Origin: Escherichia virus TH37
Sequence record: MT446409.1
Length of the DNA stretch: 53,453 nt
Direction: 5' to 3' (one strand)
Both the position numbers and the translations under genes were made by a program. Under the pieces are notes generated by a model that made no database searches, had not been told where the DNA came from, and saw nothing but the letters and a program-made list of their open reading frames with translations. Shown here in pieces: positions 8,976 through 53,453 of this stretch; the first letter of the stretch is position 1; each line of letters starts with the position of its first letter.

Positions 8976-10130
8976 TTATGGTGTTTCAGTGAAAATTACA
9001 GATGCAGTTGTGGCTTCTGCCTTCTTATCAATGTCCAGTTCGATTGTAGCAATTCCAGTAGGACTTGCAGAAGTACCAATGAACAATGAGTCAACCTGAA
9101 CACCGTTGGTAGCATCCATGATAGGTTTGAAACATTCTGACCAGATAACAGAATCACCTGGGTTCAGGGAGTTGATGTAATCCATCATAGCCGTTTGCAA
9201 CTGGCGTGCAGCATCGTTGGAACTAATGTTAGAACCAGGGCGACGCTTGAATGTACCAGTTGCATAAATGGTTGCACCTTCTGGACGGCTGAACTTAACT
9301 TCGTGCGGATAACCTTTACTATCATAGATAGACACAGATGTAGTCCCGTGAGTAGGAACGCCACCTGTTTTGGATGAATAGATTCGACGAGCAATTTCGT
9401 CTTCTGTTCCACCTTCTACGACAACAAAGACTGTACCCGAAGGCTGAGTCCCAATAGGAGCGCCGGTATCATTATCACGAATACGAAGGTAAGATAGATT
9501 AAGGTCAGCGAGTGCAGCGTAAATAGCTTCAACAAAGGCCGAACCGCTGTGCGCAGTAGTCCTGTCACGGCGAGTACGAAGTGCTGGGTCAGACTCATAA
9601 TCCACACCTGTTTGACCAATCTCTGGGTTGTTAACTGATTCCCAACCTGCGACTGGTGTATTGATTTTATTAACAGTGTCGGCAGCAATATAATATTCAC
9701 CAGTTTCTGTGGCTACTGCCGTAACAGTTCCTGGAATAATGCAGTCATATTGCGTCTTGAAATCCATTGTTCCATCACTGACAATAGAGCCAGCAGGAAC
9801 AAGAGTGCCAGCCTGACCAGCACAACGGACACCAACACGAGAAGGCCAGTTAACCAATCGTTTAGTGAAGGTCAGTTCACAGATGTTGTCCAAACCAATC
9901 TTCTGCATTGCACCAGGACGATAGGCATTGAATACCATTTCAGCCTGTTGCCAGCACTTAGAGATTTCTTCCGAAATGATTCCAATAACCTGACCATCTG
10001 GGCCTTCTGGACTAATGTCAAAGTTGGCACCAAACACGCTAAGGAATCTGCTATTAATGTGCGACACGATTTCTTGAACAGGCTTCTGTACGAACCCGTT
10101 TTCAGTCACGCCGTACTGGATTGTTGCCAT
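8976..10130 (-). CDS. Baseplate J-like protein (P2 gpJ / Mu gp47-like)
   Basis: 384 aa, position in Mu/P2-type baseplate gene order. Confidence 0.5.
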   Translation of the reverse strand: MATIQYGVTENGFVQKPVQEIVSHINSRFLSVFGANFDISPEGPDGQVIGIISEEISKCWQQAEMVFNAYRPGAMQKIGLDNICELTFTKRLVNWPSRVGVRCAGQAGTLVPAGSIVSDGTMDFKTQYDCIIPGTVTAVATETGEYYIAADTVNKINTPVAGWESVNNPEIGQTGVDYESDPALRTRRDRTTAHSGSAFVEAIYAALADLNLSYLRIRDNDTGAPIGTQPSGTVFVVVEGGTEDEIARRIYSSKTGGVPTHGTTSVSIYDSKGYPHEVKFSRPEGATIYATGTFKRRPGSNISSNDAARQLQTAMMDYINSLNPGDSVIWSECFKPIMDATNGVQVDSLFIGTSASPTGIATIELDIDKKAEATTASVIFTETP

Positions 10131-10477
10131 GTTAAGTAATCCTCAAGATTCCCGTAATCGGAGATAGCAATGAAAGAAATTCTCACTTCACGCTCACGGA
10201 AATCAGCATCAATGTTTATAGAGATAAGTTGTTGAACACCAGGAGTGCTTCGAATGATGTTGGCGATAGCCGCCTCAATGTCGGCAGTTCGAACAGTTTT
10301 AGTGAAGATTCCTTCAAACCAAGGAAGACCAGTGGTCGGGTCATGTTTCCATTCTCCGAACACCGTCAGTAATCTGCACTTAACTATTTGAGCAACTTCT
10401 TCTACACCACCAACCCTGGTTGCACCACGACCAATAATAATATCGTGGTTAGAATCTAATAGTAAGTTTCCAGCCAT
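10106..10477 (-). CDS. Baseplate wedge subunit (gpW / gp25-like)
   Basis: 123 aa between spike and J-like genes. Confidence 0.45.
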   Translation of the reverse strand: MAGNLLLDSNHDIIIGRGATRVGGVEEVAQIVKCRLLTVFGEWKHDPTTGLPWFEGIFTKTVRTADIEAAIANIIRSTPGVQQLISINIDADFREREVRISFIAISDYGNLEDYLTWQQSSTA

Positions 10478-11268
10478 TATTTCATCGGCCCTACATCGCC
10501 GCCTTCTGGGTTAGTGTGAGTGTGTTCGTTAACCGTGACCCCGTTAATGGTGAACGTACCCTGTTGAACCATGTTGCCTGTAATGGACATTGTTCCACCA
10601 CTGCCACCGGACACGGACATTCCACCAAGTACAGTGAGTGATTTGGTAACTGTTGTGTCGCCATCCAGAAGGATTTGCGGCGAGATAACAGACGCTTTCT
10701 CTGTCGCTTCAATTACTATCTCCGAATCTTTCGTGATTGTAATCTTTGCAGCACCAGTAATAAGTTCTACCTTTCCGTCACCATGAAGTGTCAGACGTTG
10801 GTCACGACTTGCATTTCGGAGTTCAGTAACTCCTGCATTAAATCCTGGTATTGCACCTGGAATTGGTTGTGTCCCAATAATACACACAGCAGAATTGTGA
10901 GAGAACAATTGGCTGAATGCTGGAGCAGGTCTTCCACCAATCATTCCAGCAGAGTCTTTATTCTCTGCCAGCCAATGTTCGATTCCACGTTGAGCAAAAT
11001 GAACATAGCAAGGAGTACCATCTGGGACTGGATGCGTTAAACTCCAGCCACCGCCCTGAATGAATTGTACGGGAACATTTCTGAGCCGCTTCTTCTTCTC
11101 CAGGGTGTAGGCATTGGTGTAGCCTGTGAACAGGTTTTCGATTGCAAGCTGCACCTCACATGTTTGAGTTACAGCATCGAAGTTATAAATATGGCCTGGG
11201 TATCCTGTGTTAACAGTTGCAGACTTTACATCGTTGTTATGACTCGCCATGTTCAAGCACACTCGCAT
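10477..11268 (-). CDS. Baseplate central spike (gpV/gp5-like) with C-terminal HTHTNPEGG apex motif
   Basis: 263 aa; beta-rich C-terminus with VNEHTHTNPEGGDVGP, like metal-binding spike tips. Confidence 0.55.
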   Translation of the reverse strand: MRVCLNMASHNNDVKSATVNTGYPGHIYNFDAVTQTCEVQLAIENLFTGYTNAYTLEKKKRLRNVPVQFIQGGGWSLTHPVPDGTPCYVHFAQRGIEHWLAENKDSAGMIGGRPAPAFSQLFSHNSAVCIIGTQPIPGAIPGFNAGVTELRNASRDQRLTLHGDGKVELITGAAKITITKDSEIVIEATEKASVISPQILLDGDTTVTKSLTVLGGMSVSGGSGGTMSITGNMVQQGTFTINGVTVNEHTHTNPEGGDVGPMK

Positions 11269-11599
11269 CTACGATGAAGAGAAACATTTGTCGCCAAGTG
11301 TAAACCTCTTCTCCTGGGCTTACAGTATTCGTAACGTACATATTCGGCAGTGGTGTACTGTATTGTTTAAGAATATCAATACCACCACGAATTGGGATTC
11401 CGTAAATCTTTTCAGATGCACCCCAAGCAAGGTCAAACATGTAACAGTTTAAATACTCGTTTAAATACAATGCAGACATTTTGACTGTGATTCCACGAAA
11501 CTCAAAAGATACATCCTTTGAAATATCGTATGGAACAGTCTTCACATATCCTGGAGGGAGTAGTGATAATATTTCTTGCAGTGCTTGTTGTTCTGTCAT
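11237..11599 (-). CDS. Hypothetical baseplate-associated protein
   Basis: 120 aa co-oriented ORF inside baseplate module. Confidence 0.3.
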   Translation of the reverse strand: MTEQQALQEILSLLPPGYVKTVPYDISKDVSFEFRGITVKMSALYLNEYLNCYMFDLAWGASEKIYGIPIRGGIDILKQYSTPLPNMYVTNTVSPGEEVYTWRQMFLFIVDASVLEHGES

Positions 11600-12546
11600 T
11601 TGAACAGCCTTCCTTTAACCGAGGACAGTGGAGATTCAAGTTTGGCAAGTTTGTCTTTCAACGTACCAAGTTGACTCACTGCCGTAGCACCTACTGCACC
11701 CAATCCAGGAAGAGAAATGCCAGCACCACCAAGAGCACCTATTCCAGCACTCTGTGCAATCTTTGCAAACTCTGAATAGTCTGTCATTGATTGCATTGCT
11801 TTTCGAGCTTCAATTGCGAGCGTATCTTCTCCGATAACTTGCAACTCTTCGACTGTGATTTCAACAGCCAATATTGCAGAAGTCATCTTGTCGGTTTTGG
11901 TTCGAATGCCTGTAACCACGCAATTCAAATAAGGTCCAACAATTGTAGAAATGTACAGCTTGGTTCCGTTTGCCCGAAAGCCATTAAACAATTCGTAGGT
12001 AGATTGGATTCGGTTGCTTGTTTCAAACGCAGAAGCAACAGCACCAGCAGCAGAGCCTAAGATTGGTATGATTGGGTTATTAAAGATTGCACCAGTTGCA
12101 ACAGATAGACCTTGTACCGATGCAGTCCACATGGCAGAGTTCTGCATGTTGGAAGCAACAGCAGTTAACTTAAGGACTCGGTTATGTTTGATGATGTGGT
12201 CACTGACTAAGAAGCCAGAGCTTACAGGAAACTTAGTAACTGTAGACTGCGCATCATGTTCTTCACTAACCATTGCATCAAACTTGAAAGAGTTAAAACT
12301 CTCTGGTGCATCTGTGGTGACAAGTGATTCCATTGCCTTGGATATTCCACCAAAGGCTTTGCCAAACAACCCTTCATCTTCCTTCTGTGCAACTGGCCCA
12401 TTAGACCACATAATTACGGACGGGTTGTGTCCATAACTAAAAGCCTTTGTTAGCGTGGAGATTCCATCGCCCAACAAACTTGTATCAATTAATGCCATTA
12501 GAAAGACTCCATCGACATTCCACTGTTTAAATACATTTGCTGCCAA
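11596..12546 (-). CDS. Putative baseplate hub protein (Mu gp44 / P2 gpD-like)
   Basis: 316 aa; position after tape measure and circulation-like gene. Confidence 0.35.
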   Translation of the reverse strand: MAANVFKQWNVDGVFLMALIDTSLLGDGISTLTKAFSYGHNPSVIMWSNGPVAQKEDEGLFGKAFGGISKAMESLVTTDAPESFNSFKFDAMVSEEHDAQSTVTKFPVSSGFLVSDHIIKHNRVLKLTAVASNMQNSAMWTASVQGLSVATGAIFNNPIIPILGSAAGAVASAFETSNRIQSTYELFNGFRANGTKLYISTIVGPYLNCVVTGIRTKTDKMTSAILAVEITVEELQVIGEDTLAIEARKAMQSMTDYSEFAKIAQSAGIGALGGAGISLPGLGAVGATAVSQLGTLKDKLAKLESPLSSVKGRLFK

Positions 12547-13604
12547 GCAGCTTCTTTACCACCCATAGCAGTATTGCCACCAAGCATTGCTGTGATGGTA
12601 GTCTGGAAGACAGTTTCATGGGTTGAGCCATGATGAACAACTTCTGTAATGAAGTATTTATCTTCCATAGCCCAGCGGAATACACTTTGGTCAGTGTTAA
12701 GAACAACACCCTTTCCGGTAACAGACGTTACACCATTTGCAAGCAGTTGCTCTCCCAACAATGGGGATACATCAAGAATCATTCCTGGTTGATAACTCGC
12801 ATTCAGAAATGTATTCAATGAATATGTTGCAATGCCAGCAATCGGGTTGCCTATAACTTGGTTAGCATCCAGTTTGATTGGTTCACGGTCTTTCGACATT
12901 CTGTCTACGGCATCTTTATTCCCGTAGGTATCTGGGAAGATTTGAATCTCACCAGTGGTTACTGAGAACAGAAGATTGTATTCACCAAGGAGGGTTCTGA
13001 ACTCTTCCAAGAATGTGTCATGAAATACACGACCAAGTTTAAGAACAGATTTGAAAACAGATTCATCAACACCAAAAGAAGAAATGGTTGAGAACCCATA
13101 GTCAGCACACATTGAACGAATGGCATCCTCAAGAGTTGCACCATTTGGAATGTCATTCATTTGAGTGAATTCTGTTGATGCACCATATGCTTTGGAAATG
13201 CAGAACAACTGTGTTACGTGTTCTGGTGGACGTCTGAACCCAACTGCGTTTGTAACTATGCCAGAAAAGATTGTCGGAAGTTTAGGACCAATTTCAATCC
13301 TTACTTCTGAATCAGCCTGTTCTGGACTTTGGTACTTACTATGACCAGCGTTTACTCCACGCTCGTCTTCGAAATATCCTGCACGAATTTCAATATACAT
13401 ATCACCATAGGTCTTGTCTTGAAGGAACTTCACTTCATCAACACCAAGGTTGTATAGAGTAATGTCGGCAGTGTCAGCAGGCCAACCAACAGTTGACCGG
13501 ATGGTGAAATCAATCTTGTGTGCTTTAAACACAGACTTTGTTTCAGGGTCATCCTTACGAGAGACAACTATCTCTATACCACGCATCCACGGCATGTTAT
13601 ACAC
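12498..13604 (-). CDS. Putative tail protein (DNA circulation-like, Mu gp43 position)
   Basis: 368 aa; first gene after tape measure gene. Confidence 0.35.
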   Translation of the reverse strand: MYNMPWMRGIEIVVSRKDDPETKSVFKAHKIDFTIRSTVGWPADTADITLYNLGVDEVKFLQDKTYGDMYIEIRAGYFEDERGVNAGHSKYQSPEQADSEVRIEIGPKLPTIFSGIVTNAVGFRRPPEHVTQLFCISKAYGASTEFTQMNDIPNGATLEDAIRSMCADYGFSTISSFGVDESVFKSVLKLGRVFHDTFLEEFRTLLGEYNLLFSVTTGEIQIFPDTYGNKDAVDRMSKDREPIKLDANQVIGNPIAGIATYSLNTFLNASYQPGMILDVSPLLGEQLLANGVTSVTGKGVVLNTDQSVFRWAMEDKYFITEVVHHGSTHETVFQTTITAMLGGNTAMGGKEAAWQQMYLNSGMSMESF

Positions 13605-13670: not shown

Positions 13671-16600
13671 TTATCTACGTTCCATTGCACCATTACCCAT
13701 GTTGATTGTTTGGGTAACAGTTTGACCGTTAGGAGTTGACACGGTTGCAGACGCTTGCTTGTTGTTCACAGTAGCTTTGACTTCAACGTTAACTACAGTG
13801 GCCTGGGTCTGACCATAAGACAGTCCATTTCTGGTGAAGCCAGTTGCACCTTCCGCAATAGAATCGCCCTGAGAAGCCCATTCACGGTACTTCTTGACGC
13901 GGTTCTGTGCCTGTAGAGGAACAGCATTGAGCCAGTCGGTTCCGTGTTTGTTGATAGCATCATCAACAGTTCCAGCACCATCCGTATACGCCGCCATAGC
14001 CTTCTCAGCGTCACCATTATAACGCTTGAGCATTGCATCGTAGTAGTCACGACCAACGCGAGCACGCTCTTCCAGAGAGTTATCACGGGCAGGTGTAACG
14101 CCAAATCCTGGGTCACGGGAAGTTGAATCAAGAACTTGCATACGACCTTTAGCACCAGTCGGTGATGTGACTACCGAACCGTCTGCGTTCAAATCGCGGT
14201 TCCCTGACTCTTCTCCTGCGATAAAGTCATAAACATTACGTTCTGCATCGGCTGCACCGTTGGAGGTCATACGCATCACTCTGGCTGCGTCACCGCCTGC
14301 CTCAATAAAGGTGCTGCCGTATGAGATTGCAGCTTGCGGAACAGCGTAACCAGGCAATACCCCAGCACGCTCCGTCTGCGCGATTCCTAGCTGTGCAACG
14401 CCTTCGGCATAGTTTGAGTCGGCCCCACGCTGAACGTTCTCCTGAGCCTCGCCCATGCTGTATTCTGTGCGGTCATAGGCACGAGCCATGCCGTCCAGTC
14501 CAGCCATTTGCATAGCGCCAGCGATACGCGCCTGACTCCAGCCCCGTTCCTGACCACGTTCACGCATTACCCGCGCTAAGGTCACAGGGTCGCCCTGTGC
14601 CTGCCTAATGTCGCCAATGGTGATAAGGCCACGGGTTCCCTGAACAATGTTCACAGCGCCGCTGGGGTCGCCATTTAGGAGGGTGTTATAGGCACTATGT
14701 GTGGTTTGATTCAGTCGGTTGGCTTGCTGGGAATTAAGTCCTAACATCTCCATGCCCTGTGACATAGAAGAGTATTCGTTAGGATTATTTACACCAGCAT
14801 CTAACGAATTGCCATAGAAGTCGTTCAGACCTTCCAGAGCTTCGTTACCAATTTGGGTAGCACCAATAGCCATACCAGCGACACGACCCCACGGAGTCAT
14901 CATCATGGCATTCATAGCGCCATTGGATAAAGAGCCAATACTGCCACCAGCTACGCCAGCAGCTAATGCCCCACCCATGCGACCGAAGTCATCGCCAAAA
15001 CTGCCACCAGCTTGCCACCCACGACGCCCACCACCGCCACCAGAACCACCACCGCTAATGCCATAGCTACTAGCATCAATGTTGTCCCAGAAGCCGCCTG
15101 AGCGCCCACCGTCGCCACCGCCGAAATCTGCATCCTGACCACGGAGCTTGTTTTCTTCCTGTGCTGCGAGGATACCTTTCTTAACTGACACTGCCATCAG
15201 GTCATTGCCAGTTGTGCTATCAGCGCCAACAGCAGAGGCTGTAGCAGCACCAACTCCAGCATCGGTACGGTTGCCTATGAATGGGTCATCAGGTGTGCCA
15301 GCAGCAGGAGAGTAGCCACGATTTGACCTCTGCTTAACATCCTTCCACAGGCCGTCACCAGTCATGGCAGCACGAGCACCCTTGATTAAATCATCATTGG
15401 ACAAGTCTGGATTAGCTTCAACAAACTCTCGACCAGCATTAAGACGACCAATAACAGAATCAATCTTATCTTTGTTGCGGTCGTACCATCCTTCATCCTT
15501 GTCAATCCACTCCGACTTCGTGGTATCGCCGATGGTTTGAGAAAACAATGCGCGCGAACGACCAGATACAAGCATCCCAAATTGAATTTGGTCCATGTAA
15601 TCTTTATGGTCACCCGCAGATAAGTTGGCAAACTTGCCAGCCCTTTGAGGGTTCTTGTGTTCCCAAATCGCGTCATCGCCGATAAGACCATCTGGGGAAT
15701 ACATGAACGACGGATAATTGTCATTTGTAATTGCGCCAGCTTGCTCAATGTCGAATCCAAATTCTTTGGCTACACGGTTACGAGCAATTTCTTCAGTTCG
15801 GTGACCAGCTTCGAACATTCTTTGGGTAAATTCGCTTGGTCCTTTTCCGCGTTGCAGGCCAACTTTATCAACCATTGCAGCCCAAGGTCTGGTATATTCG
15901 TTGTTGCCAAGGAATGAACCAACAGTTGAGCCTGTAATGTCATATTGTTTACGGAAGTCTAACCACTCCTGAGTACCCTGTTCCATATTATGAAACTTGA
16001 TTGGGCCTTGTTGTGGTTCAGGCTGAGGAACAGCGGAATCCAGGTTTGCGATTGCAATGCTCTCACGACGAGAGCGAGCAGAGTTCCAACTCGTTGGTGA
16101 ATCAAGCTGTGCAATAAACTCTGTAGATGGATTTAATTCAACAGGTCCAGTGTTTCTTAGACGTTCAGCAGGGTCGAAAGTCTTACTGATTTCAGCTTCA
16201 TTATATTGGTGAGCATTCTCAAGTACACCACGAATAGATGCACCAGAGTAACGAGGGTCATCACCAATATCTTTCTTTAGGTTGTCATAACCAGAACGAG
16301 CATCTGCAAGGTCTGTATAACGAGATGCAGAATCAAGAATCAAATCTCGGTCAGAAGATTGAGTGCGATATGCGTTCATCCCCCGTTCTGAACCACCAGC
16401 ATATACCTTAGCAGCAGATTTAACTACGCCAGATACATCTTGATATAAAGATTTACTTGCATCAGACCAACCTGGGGAGCCAGATAATGATGCAGATAAA
16501 GAATATTCAGCTTTAATGCCAGAACCCATAGAGCCTAAAGGTAGGCCAGATGCGTTAAGCGGTTGTCGGGGATGTTGAATATCACCAACAATAGATTCAG

Positions 16601-17345
16601 AACCAAGTTGAGGAAGAGAATCCATGTATGAAACTCTTGGCCCCGACTTATTACCTACATTCATTGCAGATACAGCAGCAACTTCACGGAAGTTTTGCGG
16701 CAATTCTGATTCTAAACGTTTGGCTACACGATAAACATCTCGTGCATAGCGGTCTGGGTCGTCATATTGTTGACGGTCAACATACATATGAGCAAGATAG
16801 CCCATAGATTTGGCAATATCTCCACGGTTTGTAGAGTATTCACCCATAATGTCACCAGCGTAATGACCAGGAAGTTCCGGCATTATATCTTGATGACCTG
16901 CCAGCGTATCACGCATGTACGCATTAAGCATTCCCCAATGACCTTCTGGTTTGTTTGGGTTTGCTTTAGGCATGTGCATCCACACATCATCGGTGGATAC
17001 ACCTAATTTCTCCATGTAGGCATGAACAGCTTCTACATGGTGACTTGGACCGTTCATTGCAGCATGGAATGTTTCAGTAAGCCCAGCACCAGAAATCATC
17101 TGTGCAACGTGAGCTGAGTCTGAAATCATGTCGGAAGTGCCATAAGAGATGCCATCATCTTCTGTATAGGTTTCTTCCATAAGCTGTGAATTTGTTTCCA
17201 TCCAACCAGAGGCAGCACTTGATTCAAGTTGCTGTGCCATATCTCGTTTGCGCATACCTGGATTGAATGACAGACCATATTGAGCACCTAAGCCAATCAA
17301 TTCGGCTTCGGACATTCTCATTAAATCTTTTATGTTATTAGCCAT
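13671..17345 (-). CDS. Tape-measure-like large tail protein with internal lambda-Exo/YqaJ nuclease domain, Gly-rich segment and C-terminal lytic transglycosylase domain
   Basis: 1224 aa between GT chaperone and baseplate genes; residues ~450-640 QGTQEWLDFRKQYDITGSTVGS...SPDGLIGDDAIWEHKNP...YMDQIQFGMLVSG collinear with lambda Exo; residues ~1040-1130 EESGNRDL...GAKGRMQV SLT-like. Confidence 0.6.
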   Translation of the reverse strand: MANNIKDLMRMSEAELIGLGAQYGLSFNPGMRKRDMAQQLESSAASGWMETNSQLMEETYTEDDGISYGTSDMISDSAHVAQMISGAGLTETFHAAMNGPSHHVEAVHAYMEKLGVSTDDVWMHMPKANPNKPEGHWGMLNAYMRDTLAGHQDIMPELPGHYAGDIMGEYSTNRGDIAKSMGYLAHMYVDRQQYDDPDRYARDVYRVAKRLESELPQNFREVAAVSAMNVGNKSGPRVSYMDSLPQLGSESIVGDIQHPRQPLNASGLPLGSMGSGIKAEYSLSASLSGSPGWSDASKSLYQDVSGVVKSAAKVYAGGSERGMNAYRTQSSDRDLILDSASRYTDLADARSGYDNLKKDIGDDPRYSGASIRGVLENAHQYNEAEISKTFDPAERLRNTGPVELNPSTEFIAQLDSPTSWNSARSRRESIAIANLDSAVPQPEPQQGPIKFHNMEQGTQEWLDFRKQYDITGSTVGSFLGNNEYTRPWAAMVDKVGLQRGKGPSEFTQRMFEAGHRTEEIARNRVAKEFGFDIEQAGAITNDNYPSFMYSPDGLIGDDAIWEHKNPQRAGKFANLSAGDHKDYMDQIQFGMLVSGRSRALFSQTIGDTTKSEWIDKDEGWYDRNKDKIDSVIGRLNAGREFVEANPDLSNDDLIKGARAAMTGDGLWKDVKQRSNRGYSPAAGTPDDPFIGNRTDAGVGAATASAVGADSTTGNDLMAVSVKKGILAAQEENKLRGQDADFGGGDGGRSGGFWDNIDASSYGISGGGSGGGGGRRGWQAGGSFGDDFGRMGGALAAGVAGGSIGSLSNGAMNAMMMTPWGRVAGMAIGATQIGNEALEGLNDFYGNSLDAGVNNPNEYSSMSQGMEMLGLNSQQANRLNQTTHSAYNTLLNGDPSGAVNIVQGTRGLITIGDIRQAQGDPVTLARVMRERGQERGWSQARIAGAMQMAGLDGMARAYDRTEYSMGEAQENVQRGADSNYAEGVAQLGIAQTERAGVLPGYAVPQAAISYGSTFIEAGGDAARVMRMTSNGAADAERNVYDFIAGEESGNRDLNADGSVVTSPTGAKGRMQVLDSTSRDPGFGVTPARDNSLEERARVGRDYYDAMLKRYNGDAEKAMAAYTDGAGTVDDAINKHGTDWLNAVPLQAQNRVKKYREWASQGDSIAEGATGFTRNGLSYGQTQATVVNVEVKATVNNKQASATVSTPNGQTVTQTINMGNGAMERR

Positions 17346-17972
17346 TGTCTTCTTCTTTAGGTTTTAATTCATTACGCAAATCAAGTATTGCGTGGAAGGT
17401 CAACAAATCCATAATAGAGTAGGTCCCATCTTGTAACTCTTTAAGAGAACAGAGTGAACTGTCCTCTATTACAGGACGGTGCAGGAAGTATTTTATTTCC
17501 GGGAACTTTGCAGTTAAATCGTTTCCGGACTCGAATTCTTCTGCTCGGCCATCTTGGATGCTTCCACCGCCTCCAATCGTCTGCGTTCGTTGAGTTCGAG
17601 CCCTTGCTTGAAAAAATCAAGGAAGTTCGATTCCAAAACAAATGCAAATACATGGTGCATGAGCATCAAGTTGCCGTTGTATTTCATCTGCATAGTGCGT
17701 GGAGTAACTTCGACACCATCAATGGTTGCCATACACACTACACGTTTAATTAATTCTGTTACTTCATTGCTCGTCCCACCTTGCTGCATTAAATAAATAA
17801 TGTCTGCAAAGTTATATTTATTCTCAACGAACGGGAAGATTGAAGTTCCGAGTTTCTGAACAAGCTCGACCTGGAGGTCAAGAGCCTGGCTGGCACCCAA
17901 TTGACGAGTACCAACCAAGACAACATCACCAGAGTCGGCTTGTAACTCGCGTTGACGAAGTTCACAAGCCAT
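17338..17972 (-). CDS. Tail assembly chaperone GT-like fusion made by programmed -1 frameshift at 17610-17616
   Basis: Heptamer T_TTT_TTC in the G frame; the -1 frame is open for 89 codons and its stop overlaps the tape measure ATG (17343-17345). Confidence 0.5.
17514..17972 (-). CDS. Tail assembly chaperone (gpG-like, short form)
   Basis: 152 aa between tube and tape measure genes; contains slippery TTTTTTC near 3' end. Confidence 0.5.
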   Translation of the reverse strand: MACELRQRELQADSGDVVLVGTRQLGASQALDLQVELVQKLGTSIFPFVENKYNFADIIYLMQQGGTSNEVTELIKRVVCMATIDGVEVTPRTMQMKYNGNLMLMHHVFAFVLESNFLDFFKQGLELNERRRLEAVEASKMAEQKNSSPETI

Positions 17973-17987
17973 GCTCTTACCTTAATG

Positions 17988-18443
17988 TTATACGCCGATT
18001 TCTGGATACTGACCAGTTACGATGGTGAGGCGCTCTACAAAGATAGCCCACATGTTGGATGTAAAGGTTACACCACGAACAATAGCAGGCTGTTGTAGGA
18101 TTGCACCGTTAACACCGTTAACCAATACGTCGCCCATCTTGTCAACCAATTGCAACTGCAAAGGTTCCCAGAGGGATTTGTTACCAGACAAACCAGTTGC
18201 ACGAGTAAGCTGTGCACGTTGGTAAAGGATTTCGTTCCAATCTGCCGTTTGCAGCAGTGGGAAAGTAATAACCCCAGACTGGTCAGCCGTGGTTGCTACA
18301 GCAAGTTTGCCGTAAGCATCCATAACAGGAACATGCTGTGGCACGTTGTAGCGTGCCGTAATTACAGATTGCCCTGCTTGAAAACCGTCTACACGAGCAC
18401 CGTCAATCAGGAGGTCTGTATTATAAAACGAATATTGCTTCAC
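17988..18443 (-). CDS. Tail tube protein
   Basis: 151 aa immediately downstream of sheath gene. Confidence 0.5.
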   Translation of the reverse strand: MKQYSFYNTDLLIDGARVDGFQAGQSVITARYNVPQHVPVMDAYGKLAVATTADQSGVITFPLLQTADWNEILYQRAQLTRATGLSGNKSLWEPLQLQLVDKMGDVLVNGVNGAILQQPAIVRGVTFTSNMWAIFVERLTIVTGQYPEIGV

Positions 18444-18452
18444 TGTTCACCC

Positions 18453-19901
18453 TTACTGAATGAAGTTGCCAGAGATTACAGCACCCTGGATTGCACCGGA
18501 ACCGATAGCAATAAAGGAAGTACCTTCCCAAATACGTTCACCCTTCTGCGACTGCAAGAGTTCTAACGGAGTCGAGATAACTTTGTAGCCTTCTGGATAG
18601 AAGGTGCCTTCGTTATCATAGCCAGGGGCAATGAGGCCGTTAGTCTTAGCGAGTTCGAGCGCCAGGGTTACTTGCTGGTTAACCATTGCTACACCAGTGT
18701 CCGTCCAAGGAATCTTGGTAGTGGAGGTGTAGAACAAGTTGAACACATTCAGTCGAACTTTCTGAGTCAGCCATTCAACACCCTGTACGGAGTCGAACCA
18801 CGTCCCATCAGCCATACGACCATTGAAGAACATGGTGTTACCAGCAACAGAAATGAATGCGTTACCGCCACAAGCCAGCAGTGCGCTTACCTGACCAGAA
18901 GACAAGTCAGCAGTGGAGATACCTGGACCTTTCTTGTATGCCAGAATGAGAACGGAGTTTGCAACGTTGAAGTTAACAGTCGATGCACGACCCAGGATAG
19001 AAATTTCCGGATACTCATCACCATTCGTAGAAGCATCGTAAACACACAGAGTGTTACGCAGGTTCTGGTTCTTAGCACGACGGAAGCTGTTATCAGTGCC
19101 GTTGACAAGAATGTTCTTGTCGTTATCACCCCAGCCAAATACTTTGCGGGATGCTTCACACCACTTCGCCACAGACATTTGGTTGTCTACTGGAGAGGTT
19201 TTGCCACGATACTGGCGGTCAAGGCCTACATAGAAGAAGTTGAATGGAGCATCTGCAATATTAGACAGGTCAGAAGAAATAGACAATTCGTTCTTACCAG
19301 CAACAATGACTGCGCTGTCAGAAGATTGCAGTTTCAGTACTTCACCAACTTTACCACCAACGTTGCTGATAGTTGCGTTGATGCCAGTTGCAGAAGTGGT
19401 CAGCTTGAACTTGCCAGCTTCCTGGGTAACAGTTACGCCAGCACCAACAGAGGACAGTGCGGTAGTTACCAAATTTGCAACTCCGTCGAAGTCTTCAGCA
19501 GAGGAGAAATCAATCGGGTCAGTAACATACTGAACACCGCTAACACTTAGCTGCAATGTTGCAGCAGTTTCCAGCTTAATCGTTGCCAGTACAGCAGCAG
19601 TTGCAGCAGTAATAGTGGCAGGAGTTGCTGGAGTCAGAGTATCATACTTGATAGCGCCGACCAGGAAAGTCTTCGGAGTTGGCTTCTGCGAGTACCAAGA
19701 GGTAGCAGCTTTAGCAATCTCACCACCAGGGAAGTCTGCAAGAACTTCTTTCAAGCTGGTGTAAGAGCGAACCGGATATACATCAACGGTCGGTACAAAC
19801 TCTTTGCTCAGGAAGAGCAACGGCCCAAAACCATCAGTCGCAATGGCGTTCGGGGAGATTGCGATATCAACCTGAACTAAGTCGGAAATTGGGATTGACA
19901 T
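18453..19901 (-). CDS. Contractile tail sheath protein
   Basis: 482 aa, size and position (sheath-tube-chaperone-tape measure order). Confidence 0.6.
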   Translation of the reverse strand: MSIPISDLVQVDIAISPNAIATDGFGPLLFLSKEFVPTVDVYPVRSYTSLKEVLADFPGGEIAKAATSWYSQKPTPKTFLVGAIKYDTLTPATPATITAATAAVLATIKLETAATLQLSVSGVQYVTDPIDFSSAEDFDGVANLVTTALSSVGAGVTVTQEAGKFKLTTSATGINATISNVGGKVGEVLKLQSSDSAVIVAGKNELSISSDLSNIADAPFNFFYVGLDRQYRGKTSPVDNQMSVAKWCEASRKVFGWGDNDKNILVNGTDNSFRRAKNQNLRNTLCVYDASTNGDEYPEISILGRASTVNFNVANSVLILAYKKGPGISTADLSSGQVSALLACGGNAFISVAGNTMFFNGRMADGTWFDSVQGVEWLTQKVRLNVFNLFYTSTTKIPWTDTGVAMVNQQVTLALELAKTNGLIAPGYDNEGTFYPEGYKVISTPLELLQSQKGERIWEGTSFIAIGSGAIQGAVISGNFIQ

Positions 19902-32522: not shown

Positions 32523-33386
32523 TCAGAACGGCATACCATTGCCGCCAGCAGCACCACCTTCCGCTTCACGCTGTGCTTTTGCAGCAGCCTGTGCTTCCAG
32601 TTCAGCTTTCATTGCTGCATCAACTTCTTCATCAGAAGCCTGATTCGGAACAGAATCATCAGCAGGTTTACCGCCCAGCAGAGCAGACAGTTTGGTTTTG
32701 TAGAAGTCAACACCAGCAGTGATGCGGTTCTTGATTGCGTAAGGAGAATCGCCACCAGGCAGCTTGTTGAACACTTCTAAGTCTGGCTCAGACATGTCGA
32801 AGAATACAGTCGGGTTAACCAGAGCTTTGGCTTCTTTCTTCTCTTTGGACTTCATTGGGGAGAAGGTAGCAACCTTGTTCGCGACCTGACCAGCGTTCTT
32901 GCCAGACTGTTTGGTGTATTGAACAATGCCAACAACCAGAGGTTCGCCCAGCCAATCTGGCAGGTTCTTAGCAGGGTGGCCCTGAATACTTTGTTCCAGA
33001 TTCTGTTTAACTTCCAGAGCATCAATCGCCTTAGCGAATTTGTAGATGTGGGAGTTCTCACCCATGAAGCCATCAGCATTATAGGTAAACTCAAAGTCAA
33101 ACCAACGTGGCTTGTCTTCAAGATTCTTCGCCATCATGATGCCGTCATCTTCGTCCGGGTCTTGGACCATGACCATTTTGCCTTCGCCATCAACTTCTTT
33201 CATGTACTCGTCGAGCAGCTCGAAAGTTACGAGAAGTTTCAGGGATGGGTTTGGATATTTAGCAGAGCCTGGCTGTAAGCCCAGGTCGATAATACGGCAG
33301 ACACGAGCAGGATAACCACCCGCTTCCAGTAATGGTGCAGCAGAAGGAGTCTTGTTCGAGGCCAGAGTAGGAGCAGCAAATGCCAT
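32523..33386 (-). CDS. Putative ssDNA-binding/replisome accessory protein with Gly-rich C-terminus ending in Phe
   Basis: 287 aa between DNA polymerase and exonuclease genes; C-terminus ...EGGAAGGNGMPF. Confidence 0.3.
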   Translation of the reverse strand: MAFAAPTLASNKTPSAAPLLEAGGYPARVCRIIDLGLQPGSAKYPNPSLKLLVTFELLDEYMKEVDGEGKMVMVQDPDEDDGIMMAKNLEDKPRWFDFEFTYNADGFMGENSHIYKFAKAIDALEVKQNLEQSIQGHPAKNLPDWLGEPLVVGIVQYTKQSGKNAGQVANKVATFSPMKSKEKKEAKALVNPTVFFDMSEPDLEVFNKLPGGDSPYAIKNRITAGVDFYKTKLSALLGGKPADDSVPNQASDEEVDAAMKAELEAQAAAKAQREAEGGAAGGNGMPF

Positions 33387-43464: not shown

Positions 43465-43701
43465 CTACAGTGCTTTCCAATCTGAGTCAAACAGTTCCTT
43501 TGGTCTTGAATAAATTATCGAATCAACACCAAAGAAGGTATGACTTCCATACTTCTTAACTTCCTGGTACGCAAACCCATCCACCCAATTACCGCAGTGG
43601 GTTTTAATCTTTGTAGCAAACAGGATTCGATAGTAGTGGCCGCGTGGCTGGTGGAAGAGAATATCTTCTGGCTTGATTGAGTTAATATTTAAATCACACA
43701 T
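43465..43701 (-). CDS. Hypothetical small protein
   Basis: 78 aa co-oriented ORF. Confidence 0.35.
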   Translation of the reverse strand: MCDLNINSIKPEDILFHQPRGHYYRILFATKIKTHCGNWVDGFAYQEVKKYGSHTFFGVDSIIYSRPKELFDSDWKAL

Positions 43702-44251
43702 TTAAGAACAATACCCCTTCGGAGAAGATGTAGTCACTGCCGAAGTCTTTTACAACTGCTTCCCAATCAATATATGGTCTGAGATTATCTGGAACCTCAA
43801 ACACATCATCTTGCTTTAAGTAGTCTGCAATTGAATCACAACGAGTAATGAACATGTTGTTCAAGTCGTCAACAGTGAAAATGTCAATTTCATCGCTACG
43901 GAATGCAGCAAGAATTATATCCAAGTCAGTGTCAGTAAGTAGTTCGTTGAACTTATCATACTTGCGAATGCTGAATAGGCCATTGGCAAAGCAAACTTCT
44001 GTTACATCTGCCTCACTTGATTCAATTACGTCATATGCACCAGCTTCTGGGTATTCGATGCCGTATTCCTCATGCAAATACTCCCGCATATTGAAGTCAT
44101 ACAGTCGCCAGGCCAGGCCATCAATCCAAGCATCTTCATACTCGGAATTGTTTTCGCCTGTGTAGAAACGAACCAATAAGGTTTCATCTCTACGCCAGGA
44201 CTTAAGTTGTTCTACTGCTTGAATAATTAAGTTTTTCATCGGATGCTCCAT
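43694..44251 (-). CDS. ArdA-like antirestriction protein (acidic DNA mimic) candidate
   Basis: 185 aa, highly acidic; C-terminal VPDNLRPYIDWEAVVKDFGSDYIFSEG resembles ArdA C-terminal region as recalled. Confidence 0.45.
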   Translation of the reverse strand: MEHPMKNLIIQAVEQLKSWRRDETLLVRFYTGENNSEYEDAWIDGLAWRLYDFNMREYLHEEYGIEYPEAGAYDVIESSEADVTEVCFANGLFSIRKYDKFNELLTDTDLDIILAAFRSDEIDIFTVDDLNNMFITRCDSIADYLKQDDVFEVPDNLRPYIDWEAVVKDFGSDYIFSEGVLFLNV

Positions 44252-44254
44252 TGA

Positions 44255-44764
44255 CTAGATTTTGTTTATGTATGCAAACTCGCCATGATACCTGAGTGCA
44301 GCAGCATTGTACGCCCTTGCCGCATCTTCTGGAGTATTGAAAGTGCCAAGGCATCTTCTTACACCATTCTCGGATATTCTGGCAACGTACTTGCCTCTAC
44401 TGCTTTTGTGGACACCTTTGTATCCAGAGGTGTTGGAGGTCGACACTCCTACGTTCATCAAGTTTTGTTTTGCAGACACATCACGAAGATTCTCAATTCT
44501 GTTGTTAAGGATATTCCTATCAACATGGTCTATAATCTTTGGGATATACCCATGATGTAGCCAGAATACTATCTGGTGAGCTTTCCATTTTGTACCTTCG
44601 ACAGATACTCTTAAGTACCCATCACTACACACATACCCAGCAACGTCTCCCGTACGAGCTTTTGGGCTAGTGGTTTGGGTTCGAATAAGGTTGCCCGTTT
44701 CTGGGCAATACCTTAAATATTTATCGAACCTTGGATTATTTCGGGAGTTCGAAATGAGGTGCAT
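44255..44764 (-). CDS. HNH-AP2 homing endonuclease
   Basis: 169 aa; HNH_3-like GYLRV...HQIVFWLHHG...IDHVDRN and AP2-like GYKGVHK...GKYVARI...GTFNTPEDAARAYN. Confidence 0.65.
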   Translation of the reverse strand: MHLISNSRNNPRFDKYLRYCPETGNLIRTQTTSPKARTGDVAGYVCSDGYLRVSVEGTKWKAHQIVFWLHHGYIPKIIDHVDRNILNNRIENLRDVSAKQNLMNVGVSTSNTSGYKGVHKSSRGKYVARISENGVRRCLGTFNTPEDAARAYNAAALRYHGEFAYINKI

Positions 44765-52012: not shown

Positions 52013-53453
52013 TTATTGACAGAAGTAGTAAGCGTGTTCGCTCATCAGAAGCTCTTCAGTAACAATGTTCTCATGGTACATGTTGATGCCACCAAGTTGC
52101 TTAGACAGAGATTCAAACTGATTATTGTGAACAAAGATTTCAACATAAGCAGAACGAATTACTTCCATCATTTTAGGAGCATCAGCTAAGCAGCAACGGA
52201 AACAATCGTGAATTGAAGTAAAGCCACGAAGACCAGCTTCTTTAGCTTTGACTGCAACAGTACGAGCAACCAATGCGTCAATACCTTGAATGTAGTTAAC
52301 AACGAAGGTACGCTTGAATTCTTCTTTAGTTGGGTTGGACTCACGAATGGTCCAAGGCTTATTCTCCTGAATCTGACCAAAGATAACACGAGTTTGAGAG
52401 TCAACACGAATGCTGAATGCCTCACAGATTTCACGAGATGGGAAGCAAGGCTTCATTACAACCTGACCATCAGTGTGACGATATGTGATGTACTCTTTAC
52501 CAAGTTCAACACAACGATTGTATGCAGCATCAGCAGCTTTCTCGATGAACATGTTAATCTTAGCACCCAATGCGTTATGGATTGCTTCTACACAAAGTTC
52601 AGCAAATGCTTCTGCTTTCTCAACAGGAATCTGGAGAGATGCTGTCATGTATGCAATGAAGTCAGAAGAACCAGTTAATGCAGCTTTACCACCACCATAT
52701 TGGATAGCCATGTATGGAGTTTTGATAAACTTACGACCAGCTTTCGGATTCAAGAATTCATCCATGATTTCAGCAGATGGTTTCATTGAAGAACGGTCAA
52801 GCAACTTCAACAGTTCACGAAGAGATAACTGGTATGGGTCAGATGCTTTAGTTGATGAATCAACCAGACCTGTTGCACGAGCCATCTCCATGTTACCAGC
52901 AATGAATGCCAGATATTGAGTACCAGAACATTTAGCATCTAAGCCAAAGCCTACACGAGAATCGCATTCACCTGTAGTCTCAAACTTGAACCAATCCAGA
53001 GCCAGACGAACATAAGTGAATGGCTTAGAAGGACGTTCAGCTTTAGGCATGTTCATCATGCGAGCAAGTGAACCAGCTGGATTCTGAGCAACATAAGTTA
53101 AACGCTTAGCAGAAGTCCAGTCTCCACCGGAAATATCTTCCAGCTCTGCCATAAACATGTTGTATGCAATGGTAGTAGAACCATCTTCGTTAAACTTCTT
53201 AACGATGTTCTCAACATTGTGAGAATACAAGCAACGAGCAAAGTCAGATGATTGTGGGTTAGGACCAGCACATGCTACATGGTACAGACGACCACGGTTA
53301 TCAGCAAAGTAGTCAGAGAACAGAGTGTCCTGACCAACCATTGCTACAGCATTGTTCCAAACATGGAGTTCAGTCTGGATTGCTTCTGGCATCTGCAAGC
53401 CACCATAAGTACGTTGTTCAATCATAGACTGGATGATGCGAACCATCTCAGTC
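52013..53453 (-). CDS. T7-like single-subunit RNA polymerase, C-terminal part (N-terminus beyond the window end; matches 1-1217 across the repeat)
   Basis: DNRGRLYHV, motif A-like GLDAKCSGTQYLAF, motif B-like KTPYMAIQYGGGK, motif C IHDCFRCC collinear with T7 RNAP DWRGRVYAV / DGSCSGIQHF / MTLAYGS / IHDSFGT. Confidence 0.85.
   Translation of the reverse strand, partial: TEMVRIIQSMIEQRTYGGLQMPEAIQTELHVWNNAVAMVGQDTLFSDYFADNRGRLYHVACAGPNPQSSDFARCLYSHNVENIVKKFNEDGSTTIAYNMFMAELEDISGGDWTSAKRLTYVAQNPAGSLARMMNMPKAERPSKPFTYVRLALDWFKFETTGECDSRVGFGLDAKCSGTQYLAFIAGNMEMARATGLVDSSTKASDPYQLSLRELLKLLDRSSMKPSAEIMDEFLNPKAGRKFIKTPYMAIQYGGGKAALTGSSDFIAYMTASLQIPVEKAEAFAELCVEAIHNALGAKINMFIEKAADAAYNRCVELGKEYITYRHTDGQVVMKPCFPSREICEAFSIRVDSQTRVIFGQIQENKPWTIRESNPTKEEFKRTFVVNYIQGIDALVARTVAVKAKEAGLRGFTSIHDCFRCCLADAPKMMEVIRSAYVEIFVHNNQFESLSKQLGGINMYHENIVTEELLMSEHAYYFCQ

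Follow-up and report, generated by a model that had tools for sequence, protein, structure and literature searches.

The genome of Escherichia virus TH37 (sequence record MT446409.1; 53,453 nucleotides, analysed over its whole length and referred to below as the window) encodes on the minus strand, at 13671-17345, a tail protein of 1224 amino acids (aa) that occupies the position of the tape measure protein and carries in its middle a PD-(D/E)xK nuclease domain of the lambda exonuclease (lambda Exo)/YqaJ type. The resemblance to lambda exonuclease is far beyond chance, sequence profiles and predicted fold agree on membership of the YqaJ/lambda-exonuclease family in all comparisons made, and the domain is almost certainly a genuine member of that family with a competent active site. 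Cargo that degrades the cell wall is familiar in tape measure proteins, whereas DNA exonuclease cargo is unreported in the literature found, and the nuclease is the best-conserved part of this protein across the family Chaseviridae, whose members include phages of Escherichia, Yersinia, Erwinia, Pectobacterium, Proteus, Shewanella and Aeromonas that are in biocontrol development. If the domain is delivered and active, a recombination enzyme of the Red-alpha/RecE class would double as a tool used at DNA entry before expression of phage genes, with a bearing on the survival of linear, terminally redundant genomes against RecBCD in the first seconds of infection, on their circularisation or concatemerisation, and on the intracellular roles of ejected tail proteins. 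The modules of the protein are listed here in the order in which they are translated, with the evidence that defines each (AF2, AlphaFold2; pLDDT, predicted local distance difference test).

13671..17345, minus strand: open reading frame (ORF) of the 1224-aa multi-domain tail protein in the tape-measure slot; single uninterrupted frame in the ORF list
16011..17345, minus strand: N-terminal region, residues 1-445, predicted mostly helical in the full-length AF2 model
15351..16010, minus strand: lambda-exonuclease/YqaJ-type PD-(D/E)xK nuclease domain, residues ~446-665; profiles and AF2 fold
15951..15953, minus strand: R465 codon, the counterpart of lambda Exo R28 in the 5'-phosphate pocket; MAFFT alignment
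15648..15698, minus strand: catalytic block SPDGLIGDDAIWEHKNP, residues 550-566; D552, E562 and K564 correspond to lambda Exo D119, E129 and K131
14970..15350, minus strand: Gly-rich, predicted disordered linker, residues ~666-792; composition and AF2 pLDDT
14256..14969, minus strand: weakly hydrophobic Gly/Ala-rich helices (residues 793-849) followed by a helical domain (~855-1030); Kyte-Doolittle and AF2
13851..14255, minus strand: SLT lytic transglycosylase domain, residues ~1031-1165; Pfam SLT, motifs and Foldseek
13671..13850, minus strand: C-terminal tail, residues 1166-1224, with the stop codon; alignment, low confidence in AF2

The nuclease domain and its active site

The domain was first noticed in a reading of the letters and translations alone (the sequence-only reading), which quoted three motifs and set them against strings of lambda exonuclease. 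All three are present, QGTQEWLDFRKQYDITGSTVGS at residues 456-477 (nucleotides 15915-15980), the catalytic block at 550-566 and YMDQIQFGMLVSG at 583-595 (nucleotides 15561-15599), and the lambda exonuclease strings agree with the sequences in the PDB. The extent given in that reading, residues ~450-640, falls within the domain, which reaches slightly further (~446-665). The profile search that had been suggested as a check returns Pfam YqaJ (PF09588) over residues 460-596, above the gathering cut-off (E=8.9e-13; 49.2 bits versus 22), and the PHROG RecE-like exonuclease families match residues ~426-640 with E-values of 1.7e-19 to 4e-14. NCBIfam TIGR03033 'lambda-exonuclease family', a model of the standalone type, also matches (E=2.5e-12) with a score of 47.2 bits that lies under its own cut-off of 68.05. 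Used as a single sequence in phmmer against the PDB, the protein finds LHK-Exo (3syy; E=2.6e-6, residues 454-601). A profile built by aligning the domain with 89 of its closest database relatives, all of them standalone YqaJ proteins of ~180-260 aa, matches LHK-Exo with an E-value of 5e-54 and lambda Exo with one of 1.8e-37.

Structure prediction leads to the same family. An AF2 model of residues 445-660 (mean pLDDT 87.6, predicted template modelling (TM) score 0.84) has its best Foldseek matches in the PDB among structures of lambda exonuclease (3sm4, 3slp, 1avq and 6m9k) and LHK-Exo (3syy and 3sz4), with a probability of 1.0 and TM-scores of 0.70-0.77 for the predicted domain structure. The next matches are the Cas4-like mimivirus protein R354 and, more distantly, Cas4, MGME1 and RecE. 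In a MAFFT alignment of nine Chaseviridae proteins with lambda Exo and LHK-Exo, the lambda Exo residues W24, R28, E85, D119, E129, K131 and Q157 correspond to W461, R465, E518, D552, E562, K564 and Q586 of the window protein. We take the roles of these residues (metal binding and catalysis, and for R28 the 5'-phosphate pocket) to be those in the lambda Exo-DNA structures (PDB 3sm4). The catalytic D...E.K residues, the loss of which would have counted against the sequence-only reading, are thus retained as D552, E562 and K564, aligned to those of lambda Exo and invariant in 17 homologues.

Conservation and distribution of the embedded nuclease

Full-length homologues of the tail protein occur in 79 phage genomes. 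Across eight sequences with identities down to 48%, the block YSPDGLIGDD..WEHK.P and other motifs are invariant, and in a wider set of 17 homologues, in which overall identity falls to 25%, the same is true of R465, E518, D552, E562, K564 and Q586. Mean pairwise identity in the 17-sequence alignment is highest in the nuclease (43.7%), followed by the SLT domain (40.1%), and is 21-34% elsewhere. An exhaustive search of representative sequences yielded ten full-length relatives at 39-60% identity together with remoter proteins of ~1190-1450 aa; the seven distant representatives scanned all keep a YqaJ match (E=1e-8 to 6e-21) in much the same place, including those with no detectable SLT domain.

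The strongest test of nuclease-domain conservation is provided by the subfamily Nefertitivirinae. Its homologues, from Shewanella phage SppYZU05 (1251 aa) and Aeromonas phage pAh6.2TG (1230 aa), are almost unalignable with the window protein in the regions flanking the nuclease, yet the key nuclease residues are kept, and the equivalents of W24, R28, E85, D119, E129, K131 and Q157 are found in nine of nine Chaseviridae proteins from both subfamilies. In the SppYZU05 homologue (9649-13401) Pfam detects YqaJ (E=6.9e-5) and no SLT domain. The fusion is older than the subfamily split and has persisted while its surroundings diverged, and the active site and 5'-phosphate pocket have been constrained more strongly than other parts of the protein from a time before the diversification of the family. 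The pAh6.2TG gene crosses the origin of its circularised record and is annotated there just as a truncated protein of 925 aa.

The distribution of the embedded form was surveyed by a BLAST search of residues 401-700 against 50,697 phage genomes, which gave 80 full-coverage and ~198 partial matches. Those full-coverage matches that were listed (a spread sample) are all the tail protein of Chaseviridae-type phages; those partial matches that were listed are all standalone genes, mostly labelled RecE-like, Cas4 or exonuclease and in no case tail protein. At the sensitivity of BLAST, and among the matches listed, the tail-embedded form thus appears restricted to Chaseviridae-type phages. When the domain was searched as a single sequence against a collection of 5.8 billion proteins, only three small standalone YqaJ proteins were returned, and the tail-protein family was absent from the results of that search; the family was reached via the phage collection, IMG/VR and the representative library. 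Two outgroup myoviruses with related sheaths, Burkholderia phage Magia and a Manatee Spring myovirus, have tape measures of 727 and 641 aa, respectively, with no detectable similarity to the window protein.

Within the family, the region of residues 401-700 (15246-16145, minus strand) varies as if the nuclease module were swapped as a cassette, and both module types keep the catalytic residues. Compared with the window protein, that of MLP1 shows ~90% identity outside residues 401-700 and 51-64% within them, and that of the relative L009 is 99-100% identical in residues 201-400 and 44-64% identical in 401-700. The Mangalitsa protein shows 80% identity in residues 501-600 and 47-69% in the N-terminal regions.

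Remaining modules of the 1224-aa protein

The protein as a whole matches PHROG 19855 'virion structural protein' from end to end. In the full-length AF2 model (mean pLDDT 65.6) it forms a chain of modules with many short helices and globular domains, among them the nuclease with a pLDDT of 80-93, and the Foldseek matches of this model in the PDB are confined to nucleases and lytic transglycosylases, the SLT part of the T7 core protein included. No Pfam signature of a peptidase, MuF, intein-like, HNH or LAGLIDADG domain is found in the protein.

The sequence-only reading had also described a Gly-rich linker after the nuclease and a lytic-transglycosylase-like domain near the C-terminus, and both descriptions hold. 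Glycine makes up 29% of residues 701-800, and AF2 predicts disorder (pLDDT <50 over most of residues 668-792) with the exception of a predicted helix at ~714-737. The top Kyte-Doolittle windows of the protein include residues 793-811 and 822-840, and the helices of residues 793-849 are modelled at low confidence; residues 850-975, in turn, are predicted to be helical with a pLDDT of 84-92. By composition and predicted structure, residues ~793-1030 are the stretch most like a conventional tape measure protein. The transglycosylase is recognised by Pfam SLT (PF01464; E=1e-6, 28.8 bits versus a cut-off of 21.3) over residues 1059-1135, has the SLT motifs E1046-S1047, GRMQ (1070) and AAYTDG (1118-1123), and adopts a predicted fold (~1040-1160, pLDDT ~83) that Foldseek matches to MltD, Slt and the T7 core protein. 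E1046, S1047 and Q1070 are invariant in the 17 homologues, and AAYTDG is conserved in the eight-sequence alignment. The C-terminal tail has predicted short beta strands and a conserved VNxxAxVNNKQAxAT motif. Nucleotides 14001-16000 of the window, which coincide with the Gly/Ala-rich middle of this minus-strand gene, have a G+C content of 0.514 (compared with ~0.44) and a GC skew of -0.128.

The N-terminal region is less readily characterised. Residues ~75-375 (16221-17123, minus strand) form a moderately confident, mostly helical globular part in the full-length model (pLDDT 70-90) and are conserved across the subfamily Cleopatravirinae. The N-terminal ~440 residues have no Pfam match (even at E<=10), no significant match to PDB sequences and no Foldseek match. 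An annealing protein fused to the nuclease within these 440 residues was considered and is unsupported, given the all-helical predicted structure and the lack of matches. Residues 4-46 (17208-17336, minus strand) weakly resemble the N-terminal helix-extended-helix domain of Rho, whose structures 1a8v, 2a8v and 1a62 are the top three PDB matches of the family profile for these residues, at a non-significant E-value of ~0.5. With nothing in Pfam at E<=10, a DNA-binding helix-extended-helix motif at residues ~5-45 is an unconfirmed hint.

The tape-measure slot

The genes around the 1224-aa ORF, all read from the minus strand, are as follows.

18453..19901, minus strand: tail sheath gene (PHROG 205 'tail sheath', E=2.9e-92)
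17988..18443, minus strand: tail tube protein gene, between sheath and chaperone (PHROG 280, E=3.6e-30)
17514..17972, minus strand: tail assembly chaperone gene, immediately upstream of the 1224-aa ORF (PHROG 11820, E=7.6e-58)
17338..17616, minus strand: chaperone extension of 92 codons in the -1 frame, with the slippery heptamer T TTT TTC (17610-17616)
12498..13604, minus strand: baseplate hub gene, immediately downstream of the 1224-aa ORF (PHROG 196 'baseplate hub', E=1.1e-44)

The minus-strand order is therefore sheath, tube, chaperone, 1224-aa ORF and baseplate hub, and the same order is found in phages Y2, PM1, Myduc and SppYZU05 and in two metagenomic relatives (L020 and L021), in which a Pfam Phage_TAC_15 chaperone stands at the equivalent position after the sheath and tube genes. 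The stop codon of the chaperone -1 frame overlaps the first codons of the 1224-aa ORF, and the frameshift, judged from the slippery heptamer and the frame that follows it, is probably programmed; in relatives the -1 frame is annotated merely as a separate small hypothetical ORF. A frameshifting chaperone with two products is the classical arrangement ahead of tape measure genes. Together with the neighbouring genes, this arrangement identifies the 1224-aa ORF as the occupant of the tape-measure slot, as the sequence-only reading had proposed, and no other candidate for a tape measure lies between the tube and baseplate genes.

The protein is thus a tape measure by position and by the chaperone arrangement, but not cleanly so by length or architecture. 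As a rule of thumb, a tape measure protein spans ~1.5 A of tail per residue, so that 1224 aa would correspond to ~184 nm. The tail of phage 4HA13, which encodes a homologue, measures 116.5 nm (PMC9699118), and tails in the family measure 116-166 nm (PMC12842549). A length of 116.5 nm needs ~780 helical residues, and the surplus of ~400 residues, approximately the size of the nuclease, SLT domain and linkers, would be cargo beyond the ruler function.

Presence of the homologue in virions

The 4HA13 homologue, which is 64-65% identical to the window protein and is described as 'tail tape measure protein' (128,217 Da), was found by liquid chromatography-tandem mass spectrometry in particles banded twice in CsCl (PMC9699118). 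It was among the most abundant species, with a sequence coverage of 64-67% (PMC9699118), and this coverage cannot have come from the C-terminal non-nuclease part alone since that part makes up 44% of the protein. The nuclease domain is therefore probably present in the virion.

Possible role of the nuclease at DNA entry

The order of the modules suggests how the protein might work during infection. From the C- to the N-terminus, it would consist of an SLT domain that cuts peptidoglycan, Gly/Ala-rich helices at the inner membrane, a Gly-rich tether, the nuclease and the N-terminal region of ~440 aa. On contraction of the sheath the protein would be expelled through the tail tube with the C-terminus first, as is thought for other tape measures; the site of action would be the periplasm for the SLT domain and the inner membrane for the hydrophobic helices, with the disordered Gly-rich stretch as the tether, and the N-terminal half would leave last, beside the leading DNA end, and reach the cytoplasmic side. 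If the C-terminus leaves first, the order of domains along the chain matches the order of the compartments they would meet. In phage lambda, TurboID fused to ManZ, an inner-membrane subunit of the mannose permease, labelled the tape measure during injection (bioRxiv 10.1101/2025.11.03.685801). Because three folded domains cannot sit abreast in the ~4 nm lumen of the tail tube, the nuclease would have to be stored in an extended or unfolded state and refold in the cell, as is assumed for the T7 core proteins, after which it would plausibly be trimeric, since lambda Exo and LHK-Exo form toroidal trimers and trimers are the rule among tape measure proteins.

Enzymes of the lambda Exo type need a 5'-phosphorylated double-stranded end, and long 3' tails are poor entry sites for RecBCD. 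Once refolded, and ahead of all phage gene expression, the nuclease would digest 5'-phosphorylated double-stranded DNA ends as a Mg2+-dependent 5'->3' exonuclease, and the phage's own leading end would be the most obvious substrate at entry. Resection of the 5' strands within direct repeats of ~3 kb would produce long 3' tails that are complementary between the two ends, each of which could anneal with the other repeat so that the genome circularises or concatemerises. Delivery into the cell followed by action on DNA ends at entry is, by analogy with other phages, a proposal for and against which the chances seem evenly balanced. The terminal repeats of the phage itself are the target we prefer, but this step is the weakest and a speculative one, and we hold it to be doubtful. 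The one direct support for delivery with the genome is the detection of the 4HA13 homologue in virions, and the suggestion of the sequence-only reading that a nuclease is delivered with the genome is, on this footing, a reasonable inference.

A number of points weigh against this proposal. The particle preparation of 4HA13 was not perfectly clean, as non-structural single-stranded DNA-binding protein was also present in it with 62% coverage (PMC9699118), and the nuclease domain may lie in the uncovered third of the homologue. The hydrophobic segments of the tail protein are weak (Kyte-Doolittle scores of just 0.7-1.0), membrane insertion is not confidently predicted, and the full-length model is unlike a classical long coiled-coil tape measure. 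Three folded domains of ~25 kDa do not fit side by side into the lumen of the tail tube, so that extended storage must be assumed. Resection of the phage's own leading end would destroy double-stranded early promoters located within the repeat. Standalone exonucleases of this type almost always have an annealing-protein partner, but no partner of the Red-beta, RecT or Erf type was found in a PHROG scan of ten other ORFs of the window.

A more elaborate version of the proposal makes the nuclease part of the entry machine. After ejection, three copies would close as a ring of the lambda Exo type around the end of the genome that enters first, where a channel formed by the same tape measure protein opens into the cytoplasm, and processive hydrolysis of the 5' strand through the ~3 kb repeat would ratchet the DNA inwards. 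As the enzyme would be anchored, it is the DNA that would move, and the first kilobases would be pulled in, leaving a RecBCD-resistant 3' tail that can anneal to the other repeat. Such a mechanism is very unlikely; if true, it would make a recombination exonuclease a structural component of the virion that starts infection ahead of gene expression.

Other explanations for the nuclease have to be weighed against delivery and action on the phage's own DNA ends. The delivered enzyme might instead attack foreign linear or nicked DNA at entry (e.g., DNA of co-infecting or superinfecting phages, linear plasmids, nucleic acids of defence systems, or host DNA broken by other enzymes), and enzymes delivered together with DNA for such early conflicts are the theme of the 'polyvalent proteins' (PMC5512222). 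The cassette-like mosaicism of residues 401-700 is of a type common in conflict genes and would suit such a role, as would the failure to find an annealing partner among the ten ORFs scanned. However, there would be just about three copies per infection, possibly tethered to the membrane, bulk DNA breakdown is already provided for by endonuclease VII, an HNH endonuclease and the separate exonuclease encoded in the genome, and an intact circular chromosome or plasmid, lacking the free 5'-phosphate double-stranded end that is needed, is no substrate; a conflict effector is for these reasons unlikely. Alternatively, the fold and its 5'-phosphate pocket might hold the genome end with little or no hydrolysis, docking it in the tail after head-tail joining and piloting or shielding it during entry in the manner of T4 gp2. 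A clamp of this kind would spare the phage's own early region from degradation, it would account for the invariance of the R28-equivalent pocket residue and the W24 equivalent, and other phages suggest that the N-terminal half is head-proximal in the tube, where the DNA end sits. The invariance of E518, D552, E562 and K564 down to 25% identity and in both subfamilies would nevertheless be unexpected if binding sufficed, which makes the clamp improbable.

It might also be the producer cell in which the nuclease works, late in infection and before assembly (e.g., in recombination-dependent replication, concatemer processing or host DNA breakdown), with the fusion being incidental or the N-terminal half removed as the tail matures. 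Standalone relatives do reside in the replication or recombination modules of phages (~198 phage genomes), lambda gpH is proteolytically processed during assembly, and the long disordered linker of the present protein could be cleaved. The coverage of 64-67% in 4HA13 virions, which exceeds the C-terminal 44%, the stability of the fusion since before the subfamily split while its surroundings diverged, and the separate exonuclease in the genome all leave this explanation with a low probability. Finally, the ORF could be an artefact in which a sequencing error has fused two genes, or could owe its nuclease to the recent insertion of a mobile homing-type element of no use to the phage; inconsistent annotation of the homologues, the homing endonucleases annotated in phage PYps3T and the HNH endonuclease in the window might be taken to hint at this. 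Two genes in place of one would have been fatal to the sequence-only reading, yet in 79-80 phage genomes, and also in relatives from metagenomes that are 25-60% identical, the frame is a single uninterrupted ORF, with the domain at a constant relative position and in both subfamilies, and intein-like and HNH/LAGLIDADG signatures are absent. Conservation thus effectively refutes the two-gene, frameshift and selfish-insertion readings, and the likelihood left to them is negligible.

Comparison with known systems

Lambda Exo (Red-alpha; 1avq, 3sm4) and LHK-Exo of Laribacter hongkongensis (3syy) have the same fold and order of motifs as the tail domain and share with it the catalytic D...E.K, the upstream E, the Q and the R28-type pocket residue. 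They are free enzymes of ~200-226 aa, whereas the domain described here is internal (residues 446-665) to a 1224-aa tail protein; its gene lies in the late structural module and, unlike in the lambda Exo systems, has no annealing-protein gene adjacent to it.

Tape measures with enzymatic cargo include those of mycobacteriophage TM4 (an Rpf-like motif) and T5 (pb2, a peptidase) and many with SLT, lysozyme or M23 domains. The window protein resembles these in its slot after a frameshifting chaperone, its Gly/Ala-rich hydrophobic segment, its muralytic SLT domain near the C-terminus and its surplus length. It differs in that the cargo of known tape measures attacks the cell wall while the second cargo here is a DNA exonuclease, and in that a chain of globular domains is predicted in place of one long coiled coil. 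T7 gp16, an internal core protein that is ejected, is likewise large (>1200 aa) and has an SLT domain, the part through which the full model matches the T7 core structure (9jyy_I); its passage through a narrow channel requires unfolding, followed by refolding inside the cell. In contrast to the C-terminal SLT domain, nuclease and contractile tail seen here, gp16 resides in the capsid before ejection, carries an N-terminal SLT domain and lacks a nuclease.

T4 gp2 and the Mu N protein are DNA-end proteins delivered by the virion. Their handling of DNA ends from within the particle and their countering of RecBCD are, by analogy, the role proposed for the tail nuclease; they bind or shield ends with no known nuclease chemistry and are unrelated to it in sequence, whereas the modification proposed here would be enzymatic. 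Polyvalent proteins combine several unrelated enzymatic domains, often a lysozyme-type domain with others that target nucleic acids, and are proposed to enter with the DNA before gene expression (Iyer et al. 2017, PMC5512222). The union of a nuclease, an SLT domain and an N-terminal domain in one polypeptide is similar; polyvalent proteins are, however, linked to MuF/portal-type head proteins or to conjugation and usually have a processing peptidase, and the present gene belongs to a tail module. Iyer et al. make no mention of tape measures or of YqaJ/lambda exonuclease (PMC5512222).

An exonuclease-family domain in a tail protein had been called unfamiliar in the sequence-only reading, and no description of a YqaJ nuclease in a tape measure protein, in a virion or in Chaseviridae was found in the literature. 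The exception is a label: the GenBank record of phage SKA49 names its homologue 'putative endonuclease', and the SKA49 paper does not discuss it. A tape measure with recombination-type exonuclease cargo, although visible to automated annotation, has apparently gone unremarked. Labels differ among records (tail fiber, tape measure, endonuclease, tail tube initiator, virion structural protein as in the record of PM1, and hypothetical protein), and the finding is thus relevant for the annotation of homologues. Product names in the PYps3T record, the closest in GenBank, are unreliable: 'tail tube initiator protein' stands for the homologue of the 1224-aa protein, 'tail tape measure protein' for a 73-aa ORF and 'hypothetical protein' for the sheath.

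Phage family and genome context

Over 10-22 kb, the window shares 96.9% nucleotide identity with the Yersinia pseudotuberculosis phages PYps3T, PYps4T and PYps16T and 90-95% with several Escherichia phages; these relatives are members of the subfamily Cleopatravirinae of Chaseviridae, and the window is a Chaseviridae phage. The family comprises myoviruses whose RNA polymerase and replication genes are T7-like (PMC12842549; review PMC8472413), and their genomes of 52-56 kb are linear, non-permuted and terminally redundant with terminal repeats of ~3 kb (PMC12842549). The window begins and ends (1-543 and 52911-53453) with one 543-base sequence, the two copies of which differ at 11 positions that all fall in the first 115 nucleotides. 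The repeat of ~3 kb reported for the family was rejected as an explanation in favour of a circular overlap of the assembly type with poor quality at the ends, which says nothing about where the genome truly ends.

The tail-borne nuclease is not the only exonuclease of the phage, as a separate gene at 31038-32063 matches PHROG 107 'exonuclease' and is annotated as a 5'-3' exonuclease in PYps3T. The PYps3T record also annotates endonuclease VII and homing endonucleases and contains no recognised single-strand annealing protein. Between the DNA polymerase and endonuclease VII genes of the window, an ORF of 287 aa (32523-33386, minus strand) matches PHROGs of unknown function and has no Pfam match; it might encode a DNA-binding or annealing protein that has escaped recognition. 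In the early region, at 43694-44764 (minus strand), an anti-restriction protein gene (PHROG 14321) stands beside an HNH endonuclease gene (PHROG 99). The baseplate gene block of one metagenomic relative (L020, the contig carrying P0139) includes a gene of the RelA/SpoT family at 17583-18629.

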